Assembly: GCA_949289845.1 (NCBI GenBank)
Contig: CASEPN010000001.1
Span: forward strand, 118,887-182,886
Length of the DNA: 64,000 nt
Direction: 5' to 3'
Source of the DNA: an uncultured Bacillota bacterium
Lineage (GTDB): Bacteria > Bacillota_I > Bacilli_A > RFN20 > CAG-826
In this document: in pieces, positions 54,900 to 62,628 of the stretch
Numbering within the stretch: the first letter of the stretch is position 1
How the letters are laid out: each line of letters opens with the position of its first letter
Position numbers and translations under genes: made by a program
Notes under the pieces: generated by a model
Database searches by the model: none
Told to the model about the DNA's origin: nothing
The model's input: the letters and a program-made list of their open reading frames with translations, nothing else

Positions 54900-55586
54900 A
54901 TGGGGGACACTATGGTCATGCGCGAGATGTTGCTGTCCCTGTTGCCCGGCAACCGGAAGATGTATTCCCCGCTTGCCCTCAAGGGAGACCCTTCCTCCCC
55001 TCTTATGGGAGAGAGCATGCTTTTCCTTGGGAGCTCTGTCACCAGGGGATACGGGTCCCTCGGGGAAGCCTTCCCGGAATGCTTCCATTGGATGGACGGG
55101 GCGATCTTCACGAAAGAGGCTGTGGACGGGACGACGCTCGCCGACATGGATGACCGTTCCTACCTCGCGAGGCTCAGGAAGCATGAGGGGGAGTCCTTCG
55201 AATACATGTTCGTCCAGCTTTCGACCAACGACGCGTGGCAGAAGGCGCCCCTGGGGGACAAGGATTCCCAGGATACCGGGACTACGTTCGGGTCCCTCAA
55301 CGAGATCCTTCGCATCGGATCTTCTATATCAAGTACGCTTCCGATTGTATGGAGCAATCCGTATTTCAAGAACGACCGATATCGCGAAATGGTCTCGATT
55401 TGCAAGGAAATCTCTGCAGAAGGCCGGTGCTTGTTCCTTAATTTTTACGAAGACCCCGAAGTGAACTCCATCAGCAAGAAGGAAAGGCGCCTCTACCTCA
55501 TGGACGAAATCCATCCCACGCGGGCGGGTTACAGGGACTGGCTATTCCCGTATCTTCGGGATTTCGTCCTCGGTTCTTGTGATTAG
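54900..55586 (+). CDS. SGNH/GDSL-like hydrolase family protein
   Basis: 'MLFLGSSVTRGYG' is a GDS(L)-like block I, with a C-terminal 'DEIHPTRAGY' (DxxH block V). Confidence 0.45.
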   Translation: MGDTMVMREMLLSLLPGNRKMYSPLALKGDPSSPLMGESMLFLGSSVTRGYGSLGEAFPECFHWMDGAIFTKEAVDGTTLADMDDRSYLARLRKHEGESFEYMFVQLSTNDAWQKAPLGDKDSQDTGTTFGSLNEILRIGSSISSTLPIVWSNPYFKNDRYREMVSICKEISAEGRCLFLNFYEDPEVNSISKKERRLYLMDEIHPTRAGYRDWLFPYLRDFVLGSCD

Positions 55587-55680
55587 TTTCTTATCAACGA
55601 ATATCGTATGACACTCACTATTAATCAAAAAACATTATATATAGTTAAAATCTAAGATAAGGATATCAGAAACTCAGTTT

Positions 55681-57039
55681 TTGGAGATATTAGTATCTTT
55701 CTTAGTTTCAATCCTTCATAATCTTGGCATGGATCGTGGGGTGGAAATCAAAAGAGATTCTTATCTTCGGAAACTTATTTCGAGGGCAGGGGATGGCCAG
55801 GTCAAGGTACTTACCGGTCTTCGGCGTTCGGGGAAGTCTTACCTTCTTTTCCGTCTTTTCCGTGATTTTCTCGTTTCATCCGGGGTCAAAGACGATCACA
55901 TCATCGCACTTGCCTTGGACGATCTGAGGAACCGTAAGTACTGGAATCCCATTGACCTAGACGACTATGTCCGGTCCCGCATCATGGAAGATGGTGAGAT
56001 GACCTATGTCTTCATCGATGAGATTCAGTTTGTCCGTCCCGTTCCGAATTCTTATGTCGATGATGCGAAGGTTGGCTTCGAAAACGCCGTCCTTGGATGG
56101 CTCGGAATCCCCGGTGTCGACGTTTATGTAACCGGAAGCAATTCCAGGATGCTCTCAAGTGATATCGCGACCGAGTTCCGCGGTCGGCTTGATAATATTG
56201 AAGTTCGGCCCCTGTCCTTCCGGGAACTAAAGGAGGCTTATCCTGAGAACCAACGCCTTCTTGACGAATACTTTATTTTCGGCGGGATGCCTTTTCTGGC
56301 CAGGCTTAAGGAAAGCTCCGAGAGGAGGCGCTATCTAAGAGATCTGGTCCAGCAAATATACCTGAGGGACATCCTTGAGCGGAATTCAATCCGCGGCGAC
56401 AAGGGGACGCTGGATGCATTATTGCGTGCCATTGCCTCCTCCGTCGGATCCCTGACGAGCCTGCGACGCCTCTCCAATATGTTCCTTTCTTTAGAGGGGA
56501 AGACCATCCTGCCCGGGACCGTCGAGCGTTATATCGACTATTTTGCTGACTCTTTCCTCCTGGAACCGGCTGTCAGGCTCGATGTGAAGGGGAACCGGCA
56601 CATTGCTGGTCTCCGAAAGTTCTACTTCATGGACCCCGGCCTTCGGAATGCCCTGCTCGATTTCTCTGAAATCGAACAAGCGCATGCTTTAGAGAACATT
56701 GTCTACAACGAGCTGCGGTCCCGCGGGTTGGACGTTCGCGTGGGCAGCCTTTCCGCGGACTTCCGTGATTCGAGCGGTGAAATCGAGCGGAAGACTCTGG
56801 AAATTGACTTCGTCGCGACGGACGGAAACGGGAAGGCGTACATCCAGTGTGCCTATGACCTTGCGGGCGAAGGAAAGCGCGAGCAGGAAATCCGGGGCCT
56901 CCTTCGCATCAAGGACGGATTCCGGAGGCTTGTTGTCTCGAGGGACATCGTCGTTCCCAGATATGACCGCAACGGAATTCTTTACGTGGGACTTGAGGAT
57001 TTTCTCCTGGGAGACTACCTCGGGCTCTCTAAGGATTGA
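55681..57039 (+). CDS. AAA-family ATPase with DUF4143 (AAA_14-type)
   Basis: Walker A 'GLRRSGKSYLL'. Walker B 'YVFIDEIQ'. C-terminal DUF4143-like region. Lower GC than the core genome and preceded by a very AT-rich stretch. Confidence 0.65.
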   Translation: MEILVSFLVSILHNLGMDRGVEIKRDSYLRKLISRAGDGQVKVLTGLRRSGKSYLLFRLFRDFLVSSGVKDDHIIALALDDLRNRKYWNPIDLDDYVRSRIMEDGEMTYVFIDEIQFVRPVPNSYVDDAKVGFENAVLGWLGIPGVDVYVTGSNSRMLSSDIATEFRGRLDNIEVRPLSFRELKEAYPENQRLLDEYFIFGGMPFLARLKESSERRRYLRDLVQQIYLRDILERNSIRGDKGTLDALLRAIASSVGSLTSLRRLSNMFLSLEGKTILPGTVERYIDYFADSFLLEPAVRLDVKGNRHIAGLRKFYFMDPGLRNALLDFSEIEQAHALENIVYNELRSRGLDVRVGSLSADFRDSSGEIERKTLEIDFVATDGNGKAYIQCAYDLAGEGKREQEIRGLLRIKDGFRRLVVSRDIVVPRYDRNGILYVGLEDFLLGDYLGLSKD

Positions 57040-57633
57040 TTCCGCATCTATTTTTGACTTTTTCGCTTTCGCTTTTGCCCTATCACATGCCTCATGGATT
57101 TCCTTAGGAAGATACCGCTCTATGATCTTCGCCATATTTGCTACTGAACCTAGTTCATTGTGATCTGGGAATCGAACGTAGTGACCTTGGTCGGCAACCA
57201 TACCAAGCACCGAGGCTTTACAGGGGAGGGCAAAGACCTAGGGACGAATTGCGTCCGGCGGAGCGCAACTCTCCCGATCCCGCCGGCATTGCTACTTTGT
57301 TTTGAAGGCATCTTGCAAGAAGGACCGCATGCCGGAAGTGTCCTGGGCAAAAGGGTCATTCTTGACCTTTATGCCTGTGGCCACACTCGATACCAGGTAG
57401 TTCCGCTCAGTCCCACACTATAGACATGCCATTTACTCCTACAGGGCCGGGAATTCCTCGACGGCCTCGTTTTTTGTACAGCCAAGAAAGACGGGCGGCG
57501 TTCCCGCGTTTACACAAGATTCTGTTTATCTCCCAAAGCAAGATTCAGTTGAAGTTTGACAATGAATCCCCAGCAAAACCTTTTTTAAATCCCATAATTT
57601 TAAAGGGATCGAGTAGAGCGCATCTGGCGTCAT

Positions 57634-58371
57634 TCAACCATGGAGGGTTCCGCGTCTCGTTGGACGAGGTACGGCCTTCCCGCCTTTCCTGATCGAGTCT
57701 TTTGTGTTGGCGGGATCCTTGAGGTCCGGGATCGCCCCTCCTGCGATCTCCCATAGGTAGAGGCTCGCTACGCTGCAGCAGGGGCTGAACTTCCGCCGGT
57801 ATTTCTCGAAGATTCTCCTGCTGATTTTCTTGTGATCGTAGACCATCCTCAGTCCCCTCTGGAGGGCAAGGTCGTCATAGCTGAAGACATTAGGCCTTTC
57901 GAGGCAGAAGAGGAGGATCATCTCCGCCGTCCATGTGCCGATGCCCTTGATGGAACGGAGCCTCTCGATCGCCTCTTGGTCTGGAAGGGAGGCGACTTCG
58001 TCCAGGGGAAATTCTCCATCCATGACCTTGGAAGCGAACTCCTTTATGTAGCTCGCCTTCCGGAAGCTCATCCCGAAGGACTGGAGTTCCTGGATGCCCG
58101 CTTCCGCGACCTTCCTAGGCGTCACCTCGCTGAATCCTTCCCTCATCCTTGCCCAGATCGTGCTGAGGGCCTTGGTGGAAATCTGCTGCCCGATTATCTG
58201 ATGGACGACCGAAGAGAAGAGATCCGGGTCCCTCTCGCGCCAGACGTGCCCGATCTGGTCGATGACCTCGCCAAGCCGCGGATCCCTGGACTTCAGGTAG
58301 TCGGTCTCCTTCTCGCCGTAGCGGAAGCAGATGTTCTCCCTTTCCTCATGCATCCTCTTAGTTTCTACCAC
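57634..58371 (-). CDS. alkA: DNA-3-methyladenine glycosylase II (AlkA/HhH-GPD family)
   Basis: HhH-GPD: 'IIGQQISTKALSTIWARM', 'GIGTWTAEMILLFCL', catalytic Asp in 'YDDLALQRG'. Confidence 0.75.
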   Translation of the reverse strand: MVETKRMHEERENICFRYGEKETDYLKSRDPRLGEVIDQIGHVWRERDPDLFSSVVHQIIGQQISTKALSTIWARMREGFSEVTPRKVAEAGIQELQSFGMSFRKASYIKEFASKVMDGEFPLDEVASLPDQEAIERLRSIKGIGTWTAEMILLFCLERPNVFSYDDLALQRGLRMVYDHKKISRRIFEKYRRKFSPCCSVASLYLWEIAGGAIPDLKDPANTKDSIRKGGKAVPRPTRRGTLHG

Positions 58372-58495
58372 AGAGGGCTCCGGGGATACAGGCAGGAAGA
58401 CGCTGCCTTCGCCGTTTCCGGAATTAACTTCCCGAAAAGCGCAAAAGCGGGAACTTAAATAAAAAACTTACTCACTTCTGCTACTTGAAATTCTT

Positions 58496-58504
58496 GGGGG
58501 GGGG
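58496..58504. repeat. poly-G homopolymeric tract (9 G) in the divergent promoter region
   Basis: Read directly: 'ttcttgggggggggtactct'. It lies between the alkA start (58371, minus) and the small repeat-protein gene (58538), next to a TTGAAA -35-like hexamer. Confidence 0.9.
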
Positions 58505-58537
58505 GTACTCTGAGGAAAATAAGAGGAGGTAGGTGGC

Positions 58538-58771
58538 ATGCCTATGTCGGATGAAGAGATTCTTGTTTGGTACTTCGGAGGGAGTCCCCAGTATTCCGGA
58601 AATAAACTGACGAAGATCGGGGAGCTTAGAGTGGAATACTCCGGATCGCGCCTCTCTAAGGTTGGTGGCGCTCGGATTGAGTATTCGGGAAACAAGCTCT
58701 ACAGAATCAACGGCCAGCGCGTCGAGTGGTCAGGCGACCGGATCACCAAGATCGGCAATCGCAAGATGTAG
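58538..58771 (+). CDS. small protein (77 aa) made of four 15-aa repeats [x-Y/W-S-G-x-K/R-L/I-x-K-I/V-G-x-x-R-V/I]
   Basis: 'QYSGNKLTKIGELRV / EYSGSRLSKVGGARI / EYSGNKLYRINGQRV / EWSGDRITKIGNRKM'. Strong RBS 'aggagg'. The stop lies 3 nt before the next ATG. Confidence 0.45.
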   Translation: MPMSDEEILVWYFGGSPQYSGNKLTKIGELRVEYSGSRLSKVGGARIEYSGNKLYRINGQRVEWSGDRITKIGNRKM

Positions 58772-58774
58772 CCC

Positions 58775-59539
58775 ATGATTCGCGAGTTCAGCAAGGAAAC
58801 CGCTGAGAAGCTTCGCCACTACGTTTACCGACTGGTCGACCCTAGAACCGGCGAGACTTTCTACGTAGGGGAAGGATGCGGGAACCGCGTCTTCGCACAT
58901 GCGAACGCCCTTGGGATGTCCTTCTACGATGCCGGGAATCAGTTCCTGACGGACCGTGACGTCCCGACAGAGGAGGACGAGGATCCGGCGAAGGTCCGGA
59001 AGATCGCCGATATACGGAGGTGCGGGCTCGAGCCCATCCATATCATCCAGCGATGGGGCATGGACAAGAAGACGGCATTCGAGGTCGAAGCGGCTTTCAT
59101 CGACTTCTTCGGCATGGACCACCTCACGAACAAGGCCAGGGGACAAGGGAAGGACCGCGGCATGCGTTGGGCCGATGAACTCGAGCTCGAGTTGACCGCC
59201 AGGGAGTTCCCTGACTACCCCGATTGCCCCGAGTTCATTCTCATAAAGATCAACGACCACAATATCGGCAGGGCAGGGAGCGTCTACGAGGCCGTCCGTG
59301 GGTACTGGAAGCTTCGGCCGAGCCATGCGAACAAGTATCGCTATGTCCTTGCGGTTCGCCACGGGATCGTCATCGGGGTCTACGAAGTCAATAAGGACGG
59401 CTGGAAACCGACAGACGATGCGAAGCGCGCCTACTTCGACGGGAAGGAAGCGCCTAAGGAAACCCAGGATATCTTCCTCAACAAGAAGATACCCGCCCGC
59501 TTCCGCAGGAGGCAGAACCCCGCTACCTACTGCGATTGA
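58775..59539 (+). CDS. GIY-YIG nuclease-domain protein with an uncharacterised C-terminal domain
   Basis: 'HYVYRLVDPRTGETFYVGEGCGNRVFAH' is a GIY-YIG core (Y-V-Y ... Y-V-G ... R ... H), with a downstream conserved 'E' region. The C-terminal 120 aa ('VRGYWKLRP..YRYVLAVRHGIVIGVYEV') is unassigned, possibly PUA/EVE-like. Confidence 0.55.
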   Translation: MIREFSKETAEKLRHYVYRLVDPRTGETFYVGEGCGNRVFAHANALGMSFYDAGNQFLTDRDVPTEEDEDPAKVRKIADIRRCGLEPIHIIQRWGMDKKTAFEVEAAFIDFFGMDHLTNKARGQGKDRGMRWADELELELTAREFPDYPDCPEFILIKINDHNIGRAGSVYEAVRGYWKLRPSHANKYRYVLAVRHGIVIGVYEVNKDGWKPTDDAKRAYFDGKEAPKETQDIFLNKKIPARFRRRQNPATYCD

Positions 59540-59980
59540 AATGCCCCTTGTCCGCTTCGTCGGGAAGATGGTGCCGGTTGTCCCCATTGAGCAGGGCGCG
59601 TTTCGGACTGTTTGCGACTGGAGTCGGTGAAGAACATCCTCATGCCCTCAATCCATTGGGTAGGAGGCGTTTTGCGTGTCCCATTCCCTGGAGAAGATGC
59701 CGATACCATTATCCGTCGCCAAGATCGCCCATGCGCCTTTGTTCCGTGCCTTTCCCTAAGCCGTCCTGATTTCCTCATCCGTTGAAAGCGTTGGCCCACA
59801 TGCCTTTGAAGGCAGGGAAATCGCCCTATATTTTGAAGCGCCCTCGTACCCCAGAAGGCTCGCCGCATGGGACGATAAAGCCTGGCCCGTCTGCCATTTT
59901 CTCGTTGCTCCAGGCCGGTGATGTTTTTATCCTCTCATGGGCAGGGAGGTCCTTCACGCGCCTGACCAAGGGAGGATGCC

Positions 59981-60376
59981 ATGGCCCAATTGGGAGAAAA
60001 AGATATTGAGCTGATAGAGAAGGCAAAGGATGCGATCGCCCGGAACTACGACGGCGAGCGCTTCCTCCATACGGTGGGCGCCGCCCTCCGGACGAAGGAG
60101 GGGAAGGTCTACGTCGGCGTGAACGTCTATTCAGTCCATGGGGCGTGCGCGGAGCTCATCGCCCTGGGCGCCGCCATCACCGCGGGGGAGAGAGAGTTCG
60201 AGACGATCGTCGCGGTGAACGGGGAGAGCGGCGAGCCCATGCCCCCCTGCGGAAACTGCCGGCAGATGCTCTCCGACTACGCCCCGGACTGCTGGGTGGT
60301 CATTCAAGGGGAAGGAAATCTCTGTAAAGTCCCTGCGAAATCGCTGATACCGCACTCCTATCACGCGCAGTACTGA
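59981..60376 (+). CDS. cytidine-deaminase-fold protein, blasticidin-S deaminase (BSD)-like
   Basis: Zinc motifs 'HGACAELIA' (C/H-A-E) and 'PCGNCRQ'. About 130 aa. Confidence 0.65.
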   Translation: MAQLGEKDIELIEKAKDAIARNYDGERFLHTVGAALRTKEGKVYVGVNVYSVHGACAELIALGAAITAGEREFETIVAVNGESGEPMPPCGNCRQMLSDYAPDCWVVIQGEGNLCKVPAKSLIPHSYHAQY

Positions 60377-60586
60377 GACGTGCCAAAGGCTCCTTCGACT
60401 AGGGGCCTCGTTATTTCTGCTTTCTTCCGCTCCCTTTGCTTGCGCTTTCTTTCCTTCTCGTCCTTTGCTTCGGATTCGTGACGTTCACAAGGCTCACTCC
60501 CACCAGGAACGTGGCTTGGGCCACGGACGTTCGTCCGAATCGGGGAGGCGATCCCGGAGGACAAGGAAGAAGGGGACGTCCTTTGC

Positions 60587-60880
60587 GTGGACATGCCCCG
60601 CGGCATGTACCTTGATCTCGACGTCCTTCCCGAGTTCCCCTACGCGGGGTACCACTCCGTCCATGCCTCCCAGTTCGTCCCGGAGATGCTCGACCTCCTC
60701 GCCGACTACATCGTTGAGGAAGCGGACTGGATGCTCGTCAACGGCGCTCCTTACGAGCACCCGGAGCTCGCCGCCTTATATTCCACGGAGGAGTTTTCGC
60801 TGGCGTTCCAGGAAGGAGGGTTCCTCCTTCGCGATGATTTTTCGATCGAAGGGCTTGTCCTTGTCTACGAGAGAACCTAG
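60587..60880 (+). CDS. hypothetical protein
   Basis: ORF only. Acidic. No motif recognised. Confidence 0.25.
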   Translation: MDMPRGMYLDLDVLPEFPYAGYHSVHASQFVPEMLDLLADYIVEEADWMLVNGAPYEHPELAALYSTEEFSLAFQEGGFLLRDDFSIEGLVLVYERT

Positions 60881-61026
60881 CGCGCTTTAAAGGCATCGCT
60901 CGACCCCTGTGATGTTTTCTCGTGGATGGGCGATAACTTCTCTTTTAGCCAGAGCGACTAACGGAAGAGCGCCAACTTGGCAATCGAAAACCAGCCAAAT
61001 TGAACAACGGGGCAGGACGACCGCCT

Positions 61027-62445
61027 TCACCGCGGATCGCGTTCCCCAAGCATTTCCTCGAGGCCGACAAGATGCAAATTCTCCTCTGCGGGCTCAAAGA
61101 GCATGCGATCGAAGCCGCTCGCGCCGAAAAGGTAGAACTCCTTTTCCCGATAGTCCCGGAATGGGGGCACCGAGACATCCTCGAGCATGTCGAGGTAGTC
61201 CTGGTAGCCACGTTTTTTTGAGGAGAACTTGCATTCCGCGACAAGGAGATGGTCGCCTTTCCCGGCGCAGCAATCGAGCTCGATGCTCCTTCCGAGCTCC
61301 GAGCCCTCGCGCACATAGTGAGAGAATTCCGGATAGTAGGCCCCGAGCCTCCCTTCCCGGTTAAGCGCCTCGAGATAGTCCATCGCGAGGAATTCGAACC
61401 GGCGATGAAGAAATCCTTCGATCGCGTTCCTTTCGCTTTGGAAGATGGCCTCGCCCTCGCCCAGGCGGATCCGTTCCGCATATGGCTTGATGAAGCGGAA
61501 GTAGAAAGCGAGGATAGGGTCCTCGATCTCGAGTCTGACCCCCCTCCGCGAGTGGAAACGGTAGCGCTTCCTGATGACGCCTAGCTCCTCGAGGGAGCGG
61601 ATGTGCTTGGAAAGATCCGCGGATTCCATGGCGAGCGACTTCCTTAGGGTCTCGTACTCTTCCTTGCCCTCGGCGATCCCGCGGAGGATCGAGGTAAAGA
61701 AGCCGCCGGAAAGTATGTCGCTCGTGATGAGGCTCTCGGGATAGAGAAGAAAGGGGGACTGCGGCTCGAAGAATAGCGACCTCGCGTTTTCGAGGACGCT
61801 TTTCCCAGGCTCGATGAAGGAAAGATAGAACGGATAGGTCGAGGTCAGCAGAAGAACCGAGGCCCGCTCTTTTGTTCCCTTGATATCCGCCAGCGCCTCG
61901 TTCGCTTCCTTGAGGGAAAAGCGCCCGAGGGGCAGGGCGAAGTCTGCCCTTCCGAAAAGAGGGGCTCGGCTGTCCTGGATTTCTCGTTCGACGAGGGAGA
62001 CGCTGCTCCCGGTCAGCAGAAGAAGGAACTTCTGCTTCCTGAAGCTGAGGTCGATGGCGCGCTGAAGCGTGGAGGAGAAGGATGACTTCCTCCTTCTCCC
62101 GAGACGATCGTAGGTGATGAGGGGGAATTCATCGATGCTCACCACGCCCTTCTCATCCCCGAAGTAGGCCGAGATGGCCTTGAAGAAGGCTGCCCAGTCC
62201 GGGAAAGAGGGCGGATAAGGAAGGCCTGCCTGCTCCGCGAAGGAAGAGGCGAAGTCCTTTAGAAGGCTGGCCTCGTCCGTGTCGATCGCATAGAAGGAAA
62301 GATGCTTCTTTCCCTCAGAGAACATCTCCACGAGGGTCGTCTTTCCGATTCGTCGCTGGCCATAGACGTAGCCAAATCGGAAAGTCCCCTTATTGAACTG
62401 TTCTTGAAGGGCGTCCATCTCTCTTTTTCGACTGATAAGTCGCAT
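61027..62445 (-). CDS. ATP-binding protein (archaeal-ATPase-like AAA + DUF234)
   Basis: Walker A 'GQRRIGKTTL'. Walker B 'VVSIDEF'. Length and C-terminal winged-helix-like region are typical of PF01637/DUF234 proteins. Confidence 0.6.
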   Translation of the reverse strand: MRLISRKREMDALQEQFNKGTFRFGYVYGQRRIGKTTLVEMFSEGKKHLSFYAIDTDEASLLKDFASSFAEQAGLPYPPSFPDWAAFFKAISAYFGDEKGVVSIDEFPLITYDRLGRRRKSSFSSTLQRAIDLSFRKQKFLLLLTGSSVSLVEREIQDSRAPLFGRADFALPLGRFSLKEANEALADIKGTKERASVLLLTSTYPFYLSFIEPGKSVLENARSLFFEPQSPFLLYPESLITSDILSGGFFTSILRGIAEGKEEYETLRKSLAMESADLSKHIRSLEELGVIRKRYRFHSRRGVRLEIEDPILAFYFRFIKPYAERIRLGEGEAIFQSERNAIEGFLHRRFEFLAMDYLEALNREGRLGAYYPEFSHYVREGSELGRSIELDCCAGKGDHLLVAECKFSSKKRGYQDYLDMLEDVSVPPFRDYREKEFYLFGASGFDRMLFEPAEENLHLVGLEEMLGERDPR

Positions 62446-62628
62446 TTCTCTACCTTCCTATGTATTACCTGAAGACGTCGGCAGGTAAAGTATACCAAAC
62501 GATCTGGGAAGGAAAAGGATGGCAAGTTTCAGTCAAACTATTATAGACATGTCCCATTTAATATGTAACCGCTTTCAAAATGACGGTTCCGTCCTATGAT
62601 TCTCTTGCCATAAGGCAAGGAGAAAGGA

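Follow-up and report, generated by a model that had tools for sequence, protein, structure and literature searches.

Organization of the Locus

We analyzed a stretch of 64,000 nucleotides from an uncultured Bacillota bacterium (contig CASEPN010000001.1 of assembly GCA_949289845.1, positions 118,887 to 182,886; hereafter the window), focusing on two adjacent genes, of which the first encodes a small protein built of short repeats and the second a GIY-YIG nuclease. The small open reading frame (ORF) encodes 77 residues and ends in TAG, three nucleotides before the ATG of the 254-residue nuclease ORF, and the best reading of this arrangement is a two-gene operon. Both ORFs and the three-nucleotide spacer lie where an initial annotation of the window, made from its letters, had placed them. 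The same annotation had described a G9 tract ahead of the pair; a homopolymer is indeed present in the putative promoter, with a length of ten G rather than nine. The features of the pair, all on the forward strand and numbered from the first letter of the window, are as follows.

58485-58490, forward strand: −35-like hexamer TTGAAA, a consensus match and putative promoter element
58496-58505, forward strand: G10 homopolymer, forming most of the 15-nucleotide spacer between the two hexamers
58506-58511, forward strand: putative −10-like hexamer TACTCT, immediately 3' of the G tract
58524-58529, forward strand: Shine-Dalgarno sequence AGGAGG, 8 nucleotides before the ATG at 58538
58538-58771, forward strand: small-protein gene, 77 residues, isoelectric point 9.75, 8.8 kDa; N-terminal helix followed by four 15-residue beta-hairpin repeats
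58775-59539, forward strand: nuclease gene (CMoRE/PD-T4-3), 254 residues, with profile and structure-chain matches

A Predicted Type IV Nuclease of the CMoRE/PD-T4-3 Family

The 254-residue protein matched the PADLOC model PD-T4-3 (PDLC04031) over its full length (E = 2.8e-49), its residues 2-249 of 254 aligning with positions 3-249 of the 256 in the profile, and also matched phrog_5356 (E = 7e-47). Alignment by phmmer with the crystallized CMoRE enzyme 9U75_A covered both domains (E = 8.2e-34), with residues 2-246 of the query matched to 8-250 of the chain, and the CMoRE structure 9U7U_A was matched at E = 1.4e-28. The protein divides into a GIY-YIG domain (residues ∼1-135) and a modification-sensing domain at the C-terminus (∼140-254). 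The GIY-YIG core, already recognized in the initial annotation, was confirmed by a match to the Pfam family LEM-3_GIY-YIG (PF22945). Specifically, the GIYxY-YIG motif defined for CMoRE, with its third tyrosine (PMC12923530), is present as H15-Y16-V17-Y18-R19 ... F29-Y30-V31-G32 in identical alignment to 9U75, and that alignment also contains YVYRL...FYVGEG together with the catalytic GNRVFAH and EVEAA segments. In addition, an acidic TEEDEDP stretch aligns with the acidic stretch of 9U75 at the place of the CMoRE autoinhibitory loop, so that such a loop is predicted here from its presence.

The C-terminal part had been proposed, speculatively, to be a PUA/EVE-like reader of modified bases. The idea of a reader agrees with the alignment of this region to the CMoRE sensing domain, but the proposed fold does not hold, as Pfam gave no EVE, PUA, ASCH or SRA-type domain in the C-terminus at E ≤ 0.01. 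The CMoRE sensing domain itself was described as a distinct fold, neither sequence nor structure searches having given the CMoRE authors a homologue for it (PMC12923530). A Capnocytophaga homologue was reported to cut Mu DNA as well, which bears modified adenine (PMC12366544).

By homology, the nuclease is thus predicted to be a type IV defense enzyme of the CMoRE/PD-T4-3 family that cuts hypermodified phage DNA. It resembles the described enzymes (Escherichia coli ECOR68, APEC O1 and O157:H7; 9U7U and 9U75; PMC12923530) in the full-length homology of both domains, in the GIYxY-YIG motif, in the catalytic GNRVFAH and EVEAA segments and in the acidic loop. Identity to the published enzymes is modest, and the substrate specificity of the window enzyme is a prediction from this homology. 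The published enzymes are single-gene units with their own promoter, whereas the nuclease analyzed here is a second gene, situated behind a coupled 77-residue ORF and a G-tract promoter.

An Unclassified Small Protein Composed of 15-Residue Repeats

The small protein consists of MPMSDEEILVWYFGGSP followed by four 15-residue units, QYSGNKLTKIGELRV, EYSGSRLSKVGGARI, EYSGNKLYRINGQRV and EWSGDRITKIGNRKM. The four repeats reported initially were borne out by their mean identity of 43%, a value reached by 0 of 20,000 residue shuffles. Since the units are only ∼50% alike at the DNA level and Tandem Repeats Finder detected no DNA-level repeat in the gene, the repeat is old and has been maintained at the protein level. 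Homologues hint at the third residue, M3 (58544), as an alternative start; close homologues begin with MSDEEIL and bear two, three or four repeats. The AlphaFold2 model comprises one helix and an eight-strand beta-hairpin sheet, with a pLDDT score of 92.9. Between loci, the gene showed ∼0.17 nonsynonymous differences per nonsynonymous site (pN) against ∼0.9-1.0 at synonymous sites (pS), which are saturated, and this indicates strong purifying selection on the protein.

No significant family was found for the small protein in Pfam, NCBIfam, PADLOC or PHROG, in line with the initial view that it belongs to no described family. A word-indexed search yielded 24 clusters of homologues and an exhaustive profile search 75 proteins; the small ORF is a genuine gene, and its family is unclassified. 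A tblastn search of plasmid and phage collections gave no match to it; one IMG/VR contig carries the small protein, and a CMoRE scan of viral contigs gave no match. Unlike Rhs, YD-repeat and teneurin proteins, it has no Pfam RHS or YD signature, its period is 15 residues, and its 75-residue stand-alone unit cannot form a shell.

The repeat also occurs outside the small gene. In several chimeric ORFs (P0013, P0011, P0021, P0018 and P0024; loci L002 and L003), a GmrSD_N, NAD-binding or methyltransferase-like N-terminus continues in frame into the middle of the repeats, which indicates deletions or recombination ending inside them. Furthermore, the same 15-residue hairpin repeat, ..Y..GK(L/I)YKIGD.(R/K)V.Y.., was observed in proteins of 230-370 residues (P0033, P0039, P0042, P0049 and P0028), several of which have signal-peptide-like N-termini and are apparently secreted; none of them has a significant Pfam family, and the wider family to which the repeat belongs is thus unclassified as well.

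Partners of the Small Gene in Other Genomes

Small-gene loci were gathered by scanning genomes, metagenomes and viral contigs and by exact look-ups; the 106 loci obtained (identified here by L numbers) formed 40 clusters at 90% nucleotide identity. A stand-alone nuclease was present within 1.7 kb of the small gene in 27 of these 40 clusters, mostly directly downstream and on the same strand, with the following distribution.

PD-T4-3/CMoRE partner: 13 clusters
PDDEXK_4 (PADLOC PDC-S26) partner: 4 clusters
UzuA (Uzume) partner: 4 clusters
HEC-05 (GmrSD_N/C) partner: 3 clusters
HEC-06/GmrSD partner: 1 cluster
DUF4357/T5orf172 (GIY-YIG-like) partner: 2 clusters
Small gene without a nuclease within 1.7 kb: 13 clusters

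Three of the 27 nuclease clusters (the window, L101-103 and L104-106) were reached via the nuclease; counted from the small-protein side, leaving out these three and two clusters of divergent members, the proportion is 24 of 35. Small proteins sharing 91-96% identity precede different nuclease families, and the DNA similarity (∼80%) between differently partnered loci runs from the ribosome-binding site to the stop codon of the small ORF only. Because near-identical copies precede different nucleases and the similarity ends at the small ORF, the small gene is, as judged from these sequence comparisons, a portable and independently selected first gene and not the cognate partner of one enzyme. 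We also considered a cassette bounded by the small gene on both sides; this was rejected, as no locus among L001-L094 has two copies.

Within the sampled CMoRE clade, the pair is kept at 60-86% identity. Specifically, the closest CMoRE (86% identical, in relatives of the host) is accompanied by the small gene with synteny preserved, and a 64%-identical CMoRE is abutted by a small ORF with two repeats; no small gene was found beside a 58%-identical CMoRE. The two genes, regarded as one module in the initial annotation, are therefore kept together in this clade, but the small protein is not a dedicated partner of the nuclease. The two-repeat ORF (∼45 residues; L104:2864-3000, also in L105 and L106) had been missed by the source gene caller, and co-occurrence counts based on annotation thus underestimate the pairing, because such ORFs are left uncalled.

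The junction between the two ORFs is tight throughout the PD-T4-3 clade of 60-86% identity, where the arrangements from stop to start are TAG-ccc-ATG (window), TAG-ATG, ATGA, TAATG and TGATG. In the window, no evident Shine-Dalgarno sequence precedes the nuclease ATG, which suggests that translation of the nuclease depends on the small ORF; probably, then, translation of the small ORF gates synthesis of the nuclease. Coupling cannot account for everything, since gaps of 9-270 nucleotides separate the small gene from its other partner nucleases. A read-through fusion was also considered, as the two ORFs share a frame in the window (TAG CCC ATG), and was rejected because the frame relation is not conserved in homologues; the shared reading frame is probably incidental.

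A G Tract of Variable Length in the Putative Promoter

Upstream of the small gene, the window reads TTGAAA, ttctt, G10, TACTCT and then AGGAGG, and the G10 tract is the sole run of G or C of at least eight in the 64 kb. Homologous loci have a −35-like hexamer (TTGACA or TTGATT) at the same place and a −10-like hexamer (TATACT, TATAAT, TATTAT or TATTCT) directly after the tract. This layout of −35-like hexamer, G tract and −10-like hexamer occurs in more than 10 homologous loci. Ahead of the small gene it recurs with partners of four types, and its tracts range from G4 to G11, as in the following examples.

L011 and L013, CMoRE partner: G9 and G11
L021, CMoRE partner: G9
L033, CMoRE partner: G7
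L025, divergent PD-T4-3 partner: G8
L019 and L020, DUF7662 and PD-T4-3 partner: G8 and G5
L017, UzuA partner: G11
L023, HEC-05 partner: G9

Closely related loci differ in tract length: L011 and L013 are 93-98% identical over kilobases, yet have G9 and G11, and L019 and L020 are 97% identical, yet have G8 and G5. In the host lineage, the window has G10, L101 and L103 have G11, and L102 has an interrupted tract, G6TG3. Across 887 kb of related loci there are 17 runs of G or C of at least seven, of which 11 are the tract upstream of the small gene. Putative spacers measure 16-17 nucleotides in loci without a long tract (L015, L067, L071, L084 and L088) and 13-19 nucleotides in loci with a tract, the window having 15. 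Simple-sequence-repeat promoter phase variation is marked by a homopolymer of at least seven between the −35 and −10 elements, here G10, and by tract lengths that differ between close loci, as found here, assembly error being a possible contributor. The initial suggestion that the tract is phase-variable is supported by its conserved position and by its differing length among homologous loci, and from this comparison the pattern is that expected for slipped-strand control of promoter strength.

Contig L024 starts two nucleotides after the tract position, where L023 has G9. Many contigs end 30-200 nucleotides upstream of the small gene (L024:1, L028:1, L015, L018, L042 and L087), which is consistent with assemblies breaking at the tract. 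In addition, the DUF7662 gene, which stands between the small gene and PD-T4-3 in some loci, contains a second G tract (L031:683, L080:5372); this tract is G7 where the 315-residue ORF is intact, G6 in L020, where a frameshift truncates the ORF, and G5AA in L032. This inner tract may be a repeat switch within a coding sequence. A further G9 at L033:9267-9275, directly followed by TAATAT, lies ∼80 nucleotides upstream of a 218-residue gene that follows CMoRE, so the layout of tract and hexamer is not confined to the small gene.

Genomic Context

Two further features border the pair.

57634-58371, reverse strand: HhH-GPD (AlkA-like) DNA glycosylase gene, divergent, with an intergenic region common with the small gene
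59655-59879, forward strand: remnant of a degraded BspA-type LRR_5 gene (tblastn E = 2e-10)

The neighborhood agrees with the initial description of two ATPases, an AlkA-like protein and a deaminase-fold protein in a region of lower GC content: the Pfam assignments are an AAA_14/DUF4143 ATPase, the HhH-GPD glycosylase, a cytidine-deaminase-fold protein and an ATPase_2/DUF234 protein, and the GC content is 45-59% at window positions 55100-62600 against 61-65% in the flanks. LeuS encoded in the window is ∼71% identical to proteins of metagenome-assembled genomes labeled Mollicutes, Bacilli or Bacillota, so the host belongs to an uncultured Bacillota lineage with an unusually high GC content. The AAA_14/DUF4143 ATPase matched the PADLOC candidate defense family PDC-S01 (E = 5e-104) and the ATPase_2/DUF234 protein matched the candidate family PDC-S27 (E = 2e-35); in the relative L102, a Fic gene stands in place of the AAA_14 gene. 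In the relatives L101 and L102, too, the glycosylase gene adjoins the pair divergently, also where the sequence farther out is different (L102). The glycosylase is a possible member of the module and may work with the modification-dependent nuclease.

The LRR_5 remnant sits in a gap of 440 nucleotides, otherwise empty, 3' of the nuclease gene. In the relative L101, an intact LRR_5 gene of 361 residues (Pfam LRR_5 E = 6e-94) follows CMoRE, and the small gene is likewise flanked by LRR_5 genes in L001-type loci, as an 818-residue fusion of LRR_5 and methyltransferase, and in L096-L099. Rfam gave only a chance, sub-threshold match at the locus.

Discussion

On balance, and with only slight preference, we favor the view that the locus is an operon for a type IV nuclease, tuned by slippage and led by a portable accessory protein. 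First, the C-terminal domain of the nuclease would recognize hypermodified bases of phage DNA (5-hydroxymethylcytosine (5hmC) or glucosyl-5hmC in E. coli; a Mu-type modified adenine for the Capnocytophaga homologue), and the GIY-YIG domain would then cut the hypermodified DNA, a step modeled on homologous enzymes that have been characterized and crystallized. Second, transcription would start from a sigma-A-type promoter whose spacer is largely the G tract. Judging from the comparison of loci, slipped-strand mispairing would alter the length of the tract and hence that of the spacer (15 nucleotides here; 17 nucleotides being optimal), so that expression may switch or grade between cells and the population may hedge phage resistance against tolerance of modified DNA. 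Third, the small gene would be a portable leading gene that many stand-alone defense nucleases, unrelated to one another, have in common. Its translation probably gates nuclease synthesis, and the small protein is itself under selection as well; it may act on something that the nucleases share, such as DNA or phage counter-defense proteins, and not on one nuclease fold.

Elements of this arrangement have counterparts in known systems. In type I and III phasevarions, restriction function is switched stochastically by simple-sequence repeats, which usually lie inside the mod or hsdS coding sequence and alter methylation; here, by contrast, the tract is in the putative promoter, and the enzyme is predicted to be modification-dependent and is without a methyltransferase. 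The poly-G tract of porA sits between promoter hexamers. The present locus is like porA of Neisseria meningitidis in having a poly-G tract in the promoter whose length differs among related loci (PMC3639595), whereas porA encodes a surface antigen and the putatively phase-variable tract described here precedes a putative type IV restriction operon of an uncultured gut Bacillota lineage. TifA of phages and IPI* of T4 offer a parallel, being small proteins with functional links to several type IV enzymes (PMC11322646); the protein analyzed here differs from them in being host-encoded, basic and all-beta, and it has no sequence similarity to them. A TifA-like inhibitor was accordingly considered for the small protein and rejected, TifA being acidic and the small protein having an isoelectric point of 9.75.

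Several observations weigh against the operon reading given above. CMoRE homologues of E. coli, Klebsiella and Capnocytophaga defend without a partner (PMC12923530, PMC12366544), so the small protein is not required for nuclease activity, and all 274 surveyed CMoRE systems were reported as single-component (PMC12923530). The window departs from that organization, in that a coupled 77-residue ORF, kept in the close clade, precedes the nuclease; the single-component feature of CMoRE is descriptive and not catalytic. The pairing is also a minority arrangement, since the small protein forms a few dozen clusters, whereas PD-T4-3 has 3,744 homologues at E ≤ 1e-20. Additionally, in a large human-gut lineage the small gene occurs alone, beside a convergent 189-residue membrane protein, and divergent members of its family adjoin acetyltransferase or LRR_5 genes, so that its role may be unrelated to defense. 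With regard to the promoter, the −35 and −10 elements were assigned by consensus matches only, and a strict scan requiring a spacer of 16-18 nucleotides gave no match, the spacer in the window being 15. The second assembly of the locus (L100) is 100% identical and also has G10, but it may go back to the same data and is probably not independent. Moreover, metagenome assemblies can miscall the length of a homopolymer.

A rival explanation is that the small gene is a hitch-hiker or island marker, with its own non-defense function, that sits where defense genes come and go. The solo copies beside the membrane protein, whose upstream content is variable, would fit it, as would the chimeric ORFs with GmrSD_N, NAD-binding or methyltransferase-like N-termini, the acetyltransferase or LRR_5 neighbors of divergent members and the same 15-residue repeat in long, apparently secreted proteins. 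We nevertheless regard this explanation as unlikely. In about two-thirds of the dereplicated contexts a stand-alone nuclease is present, which as a rule immediately follows the small gene, shares its strand and lies behind the same kind of G-tract promoter; the two ORFs are translationally coupled in the CMoRE clade; and both flanks vary between loci, which means that there is no fixed chromosomal hotspot.

The initial annotation had thought of a defense or toxin system. The defense part is upheld by the matches of the nuclease to PADLOC PD-T4-3 and to CMoRE structures, and the toxin part is disfavored because the small protein leads several unrelated nuclease families. A toxin-antitoxin-like mechanism, in which the small protein binds and neutralizes the nuclease until phage infection frees it, would suit a small upstream gene so tightly coupled (by a gap of three nucleotides, with overlaps in homologues) to a potentially genotoxic nuclease, and a CMoRE mutant without the acidic loop is toxic (PMC12923530). 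Wild-type CMoRE, however, is tolerated alone in E. coli (PMC12923530, PMC12366544), and a specific interface is unlikely where small proteins of 91-96% identity precede GIY-YIG, PD-(D/E)xK and DUF262/HNH-type nucleases. The cognate specificity and co-evolution of type II toxin-antitoxin systems were not found, as unrelated nuclease folds are paired with the small protein and solo copies are common, and its basic character is unlike that of acidic nuclease inhibitors such as TifA. This mechanism is therefore improbable. A pure leader ORF, whose translation merely brings ribosomes to the nuclease start and whose peptide is functionless, agrees with the abutting or overlapping stop and start codons of the close CMoRE clade and with the window nuclease lacking an evident Shine-Dalgarno sequence, but is very improbable in view of the strong purifying selection on amino acids with saturated synonymous sites, the confidently predicted fold, and the retention of the gene when it is solo, when the next gene is 40-270 nucleotides off or when its neighbor is on the other strand.

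A bolder extension of the slippage-tuned operon with its portable accessory protein is tentative, and we hold it to be rather doubtful as a whole. In it, the G-tract promoter and the hairpin-repeat protein would form a portable phase-variable platform onto which gut Bacillota swap modification-dependent nucleases, and the small basic protein would help any nuclease, either by binding hypermodified DNA or by soaking up acidic phage anti-restriction proteins of the TifA, IPI* or Ocr kind. The role of a decoy is speculative and is suggested by the acidic nature of TifA-type inhibitors of type IV enzymes, the small protein being basic; binding of modified DNA is likewise speculative. If the platform reading is true, the small protein would represent a component of type IV restriction of a new class and could be used as bait in the search for new defense nucleases.

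The CMoRE nuclease family and phase variation by homopolymers are already known. The small-protein family, its recurrent place before six nuclease families and the conserved poly-G spacer appear to be undescribed in the searchable literature. CMoRE/PD-T4-3, described as a single-gene system, is here and in a clade of relatives the second gene behind a strongly conserved, unclassified small protein. If that protein contributes to defense, type IV restriction would have in it an accessory common to several nucleases, and it could serve in practice as a marker by which new nucleases are found, with the unannotated 281-residue (L027), 353-residue (L014) and DUF7662 neighbors as candidates. Furthermore, the conserved poly-G spacer suggests that uncultured gut Bacillota may switch type IV restriction on and off stochastically, and such switching, if true, would affect phage susceptibility, the uptake of modified DNA and the predictions made for phage therapy.

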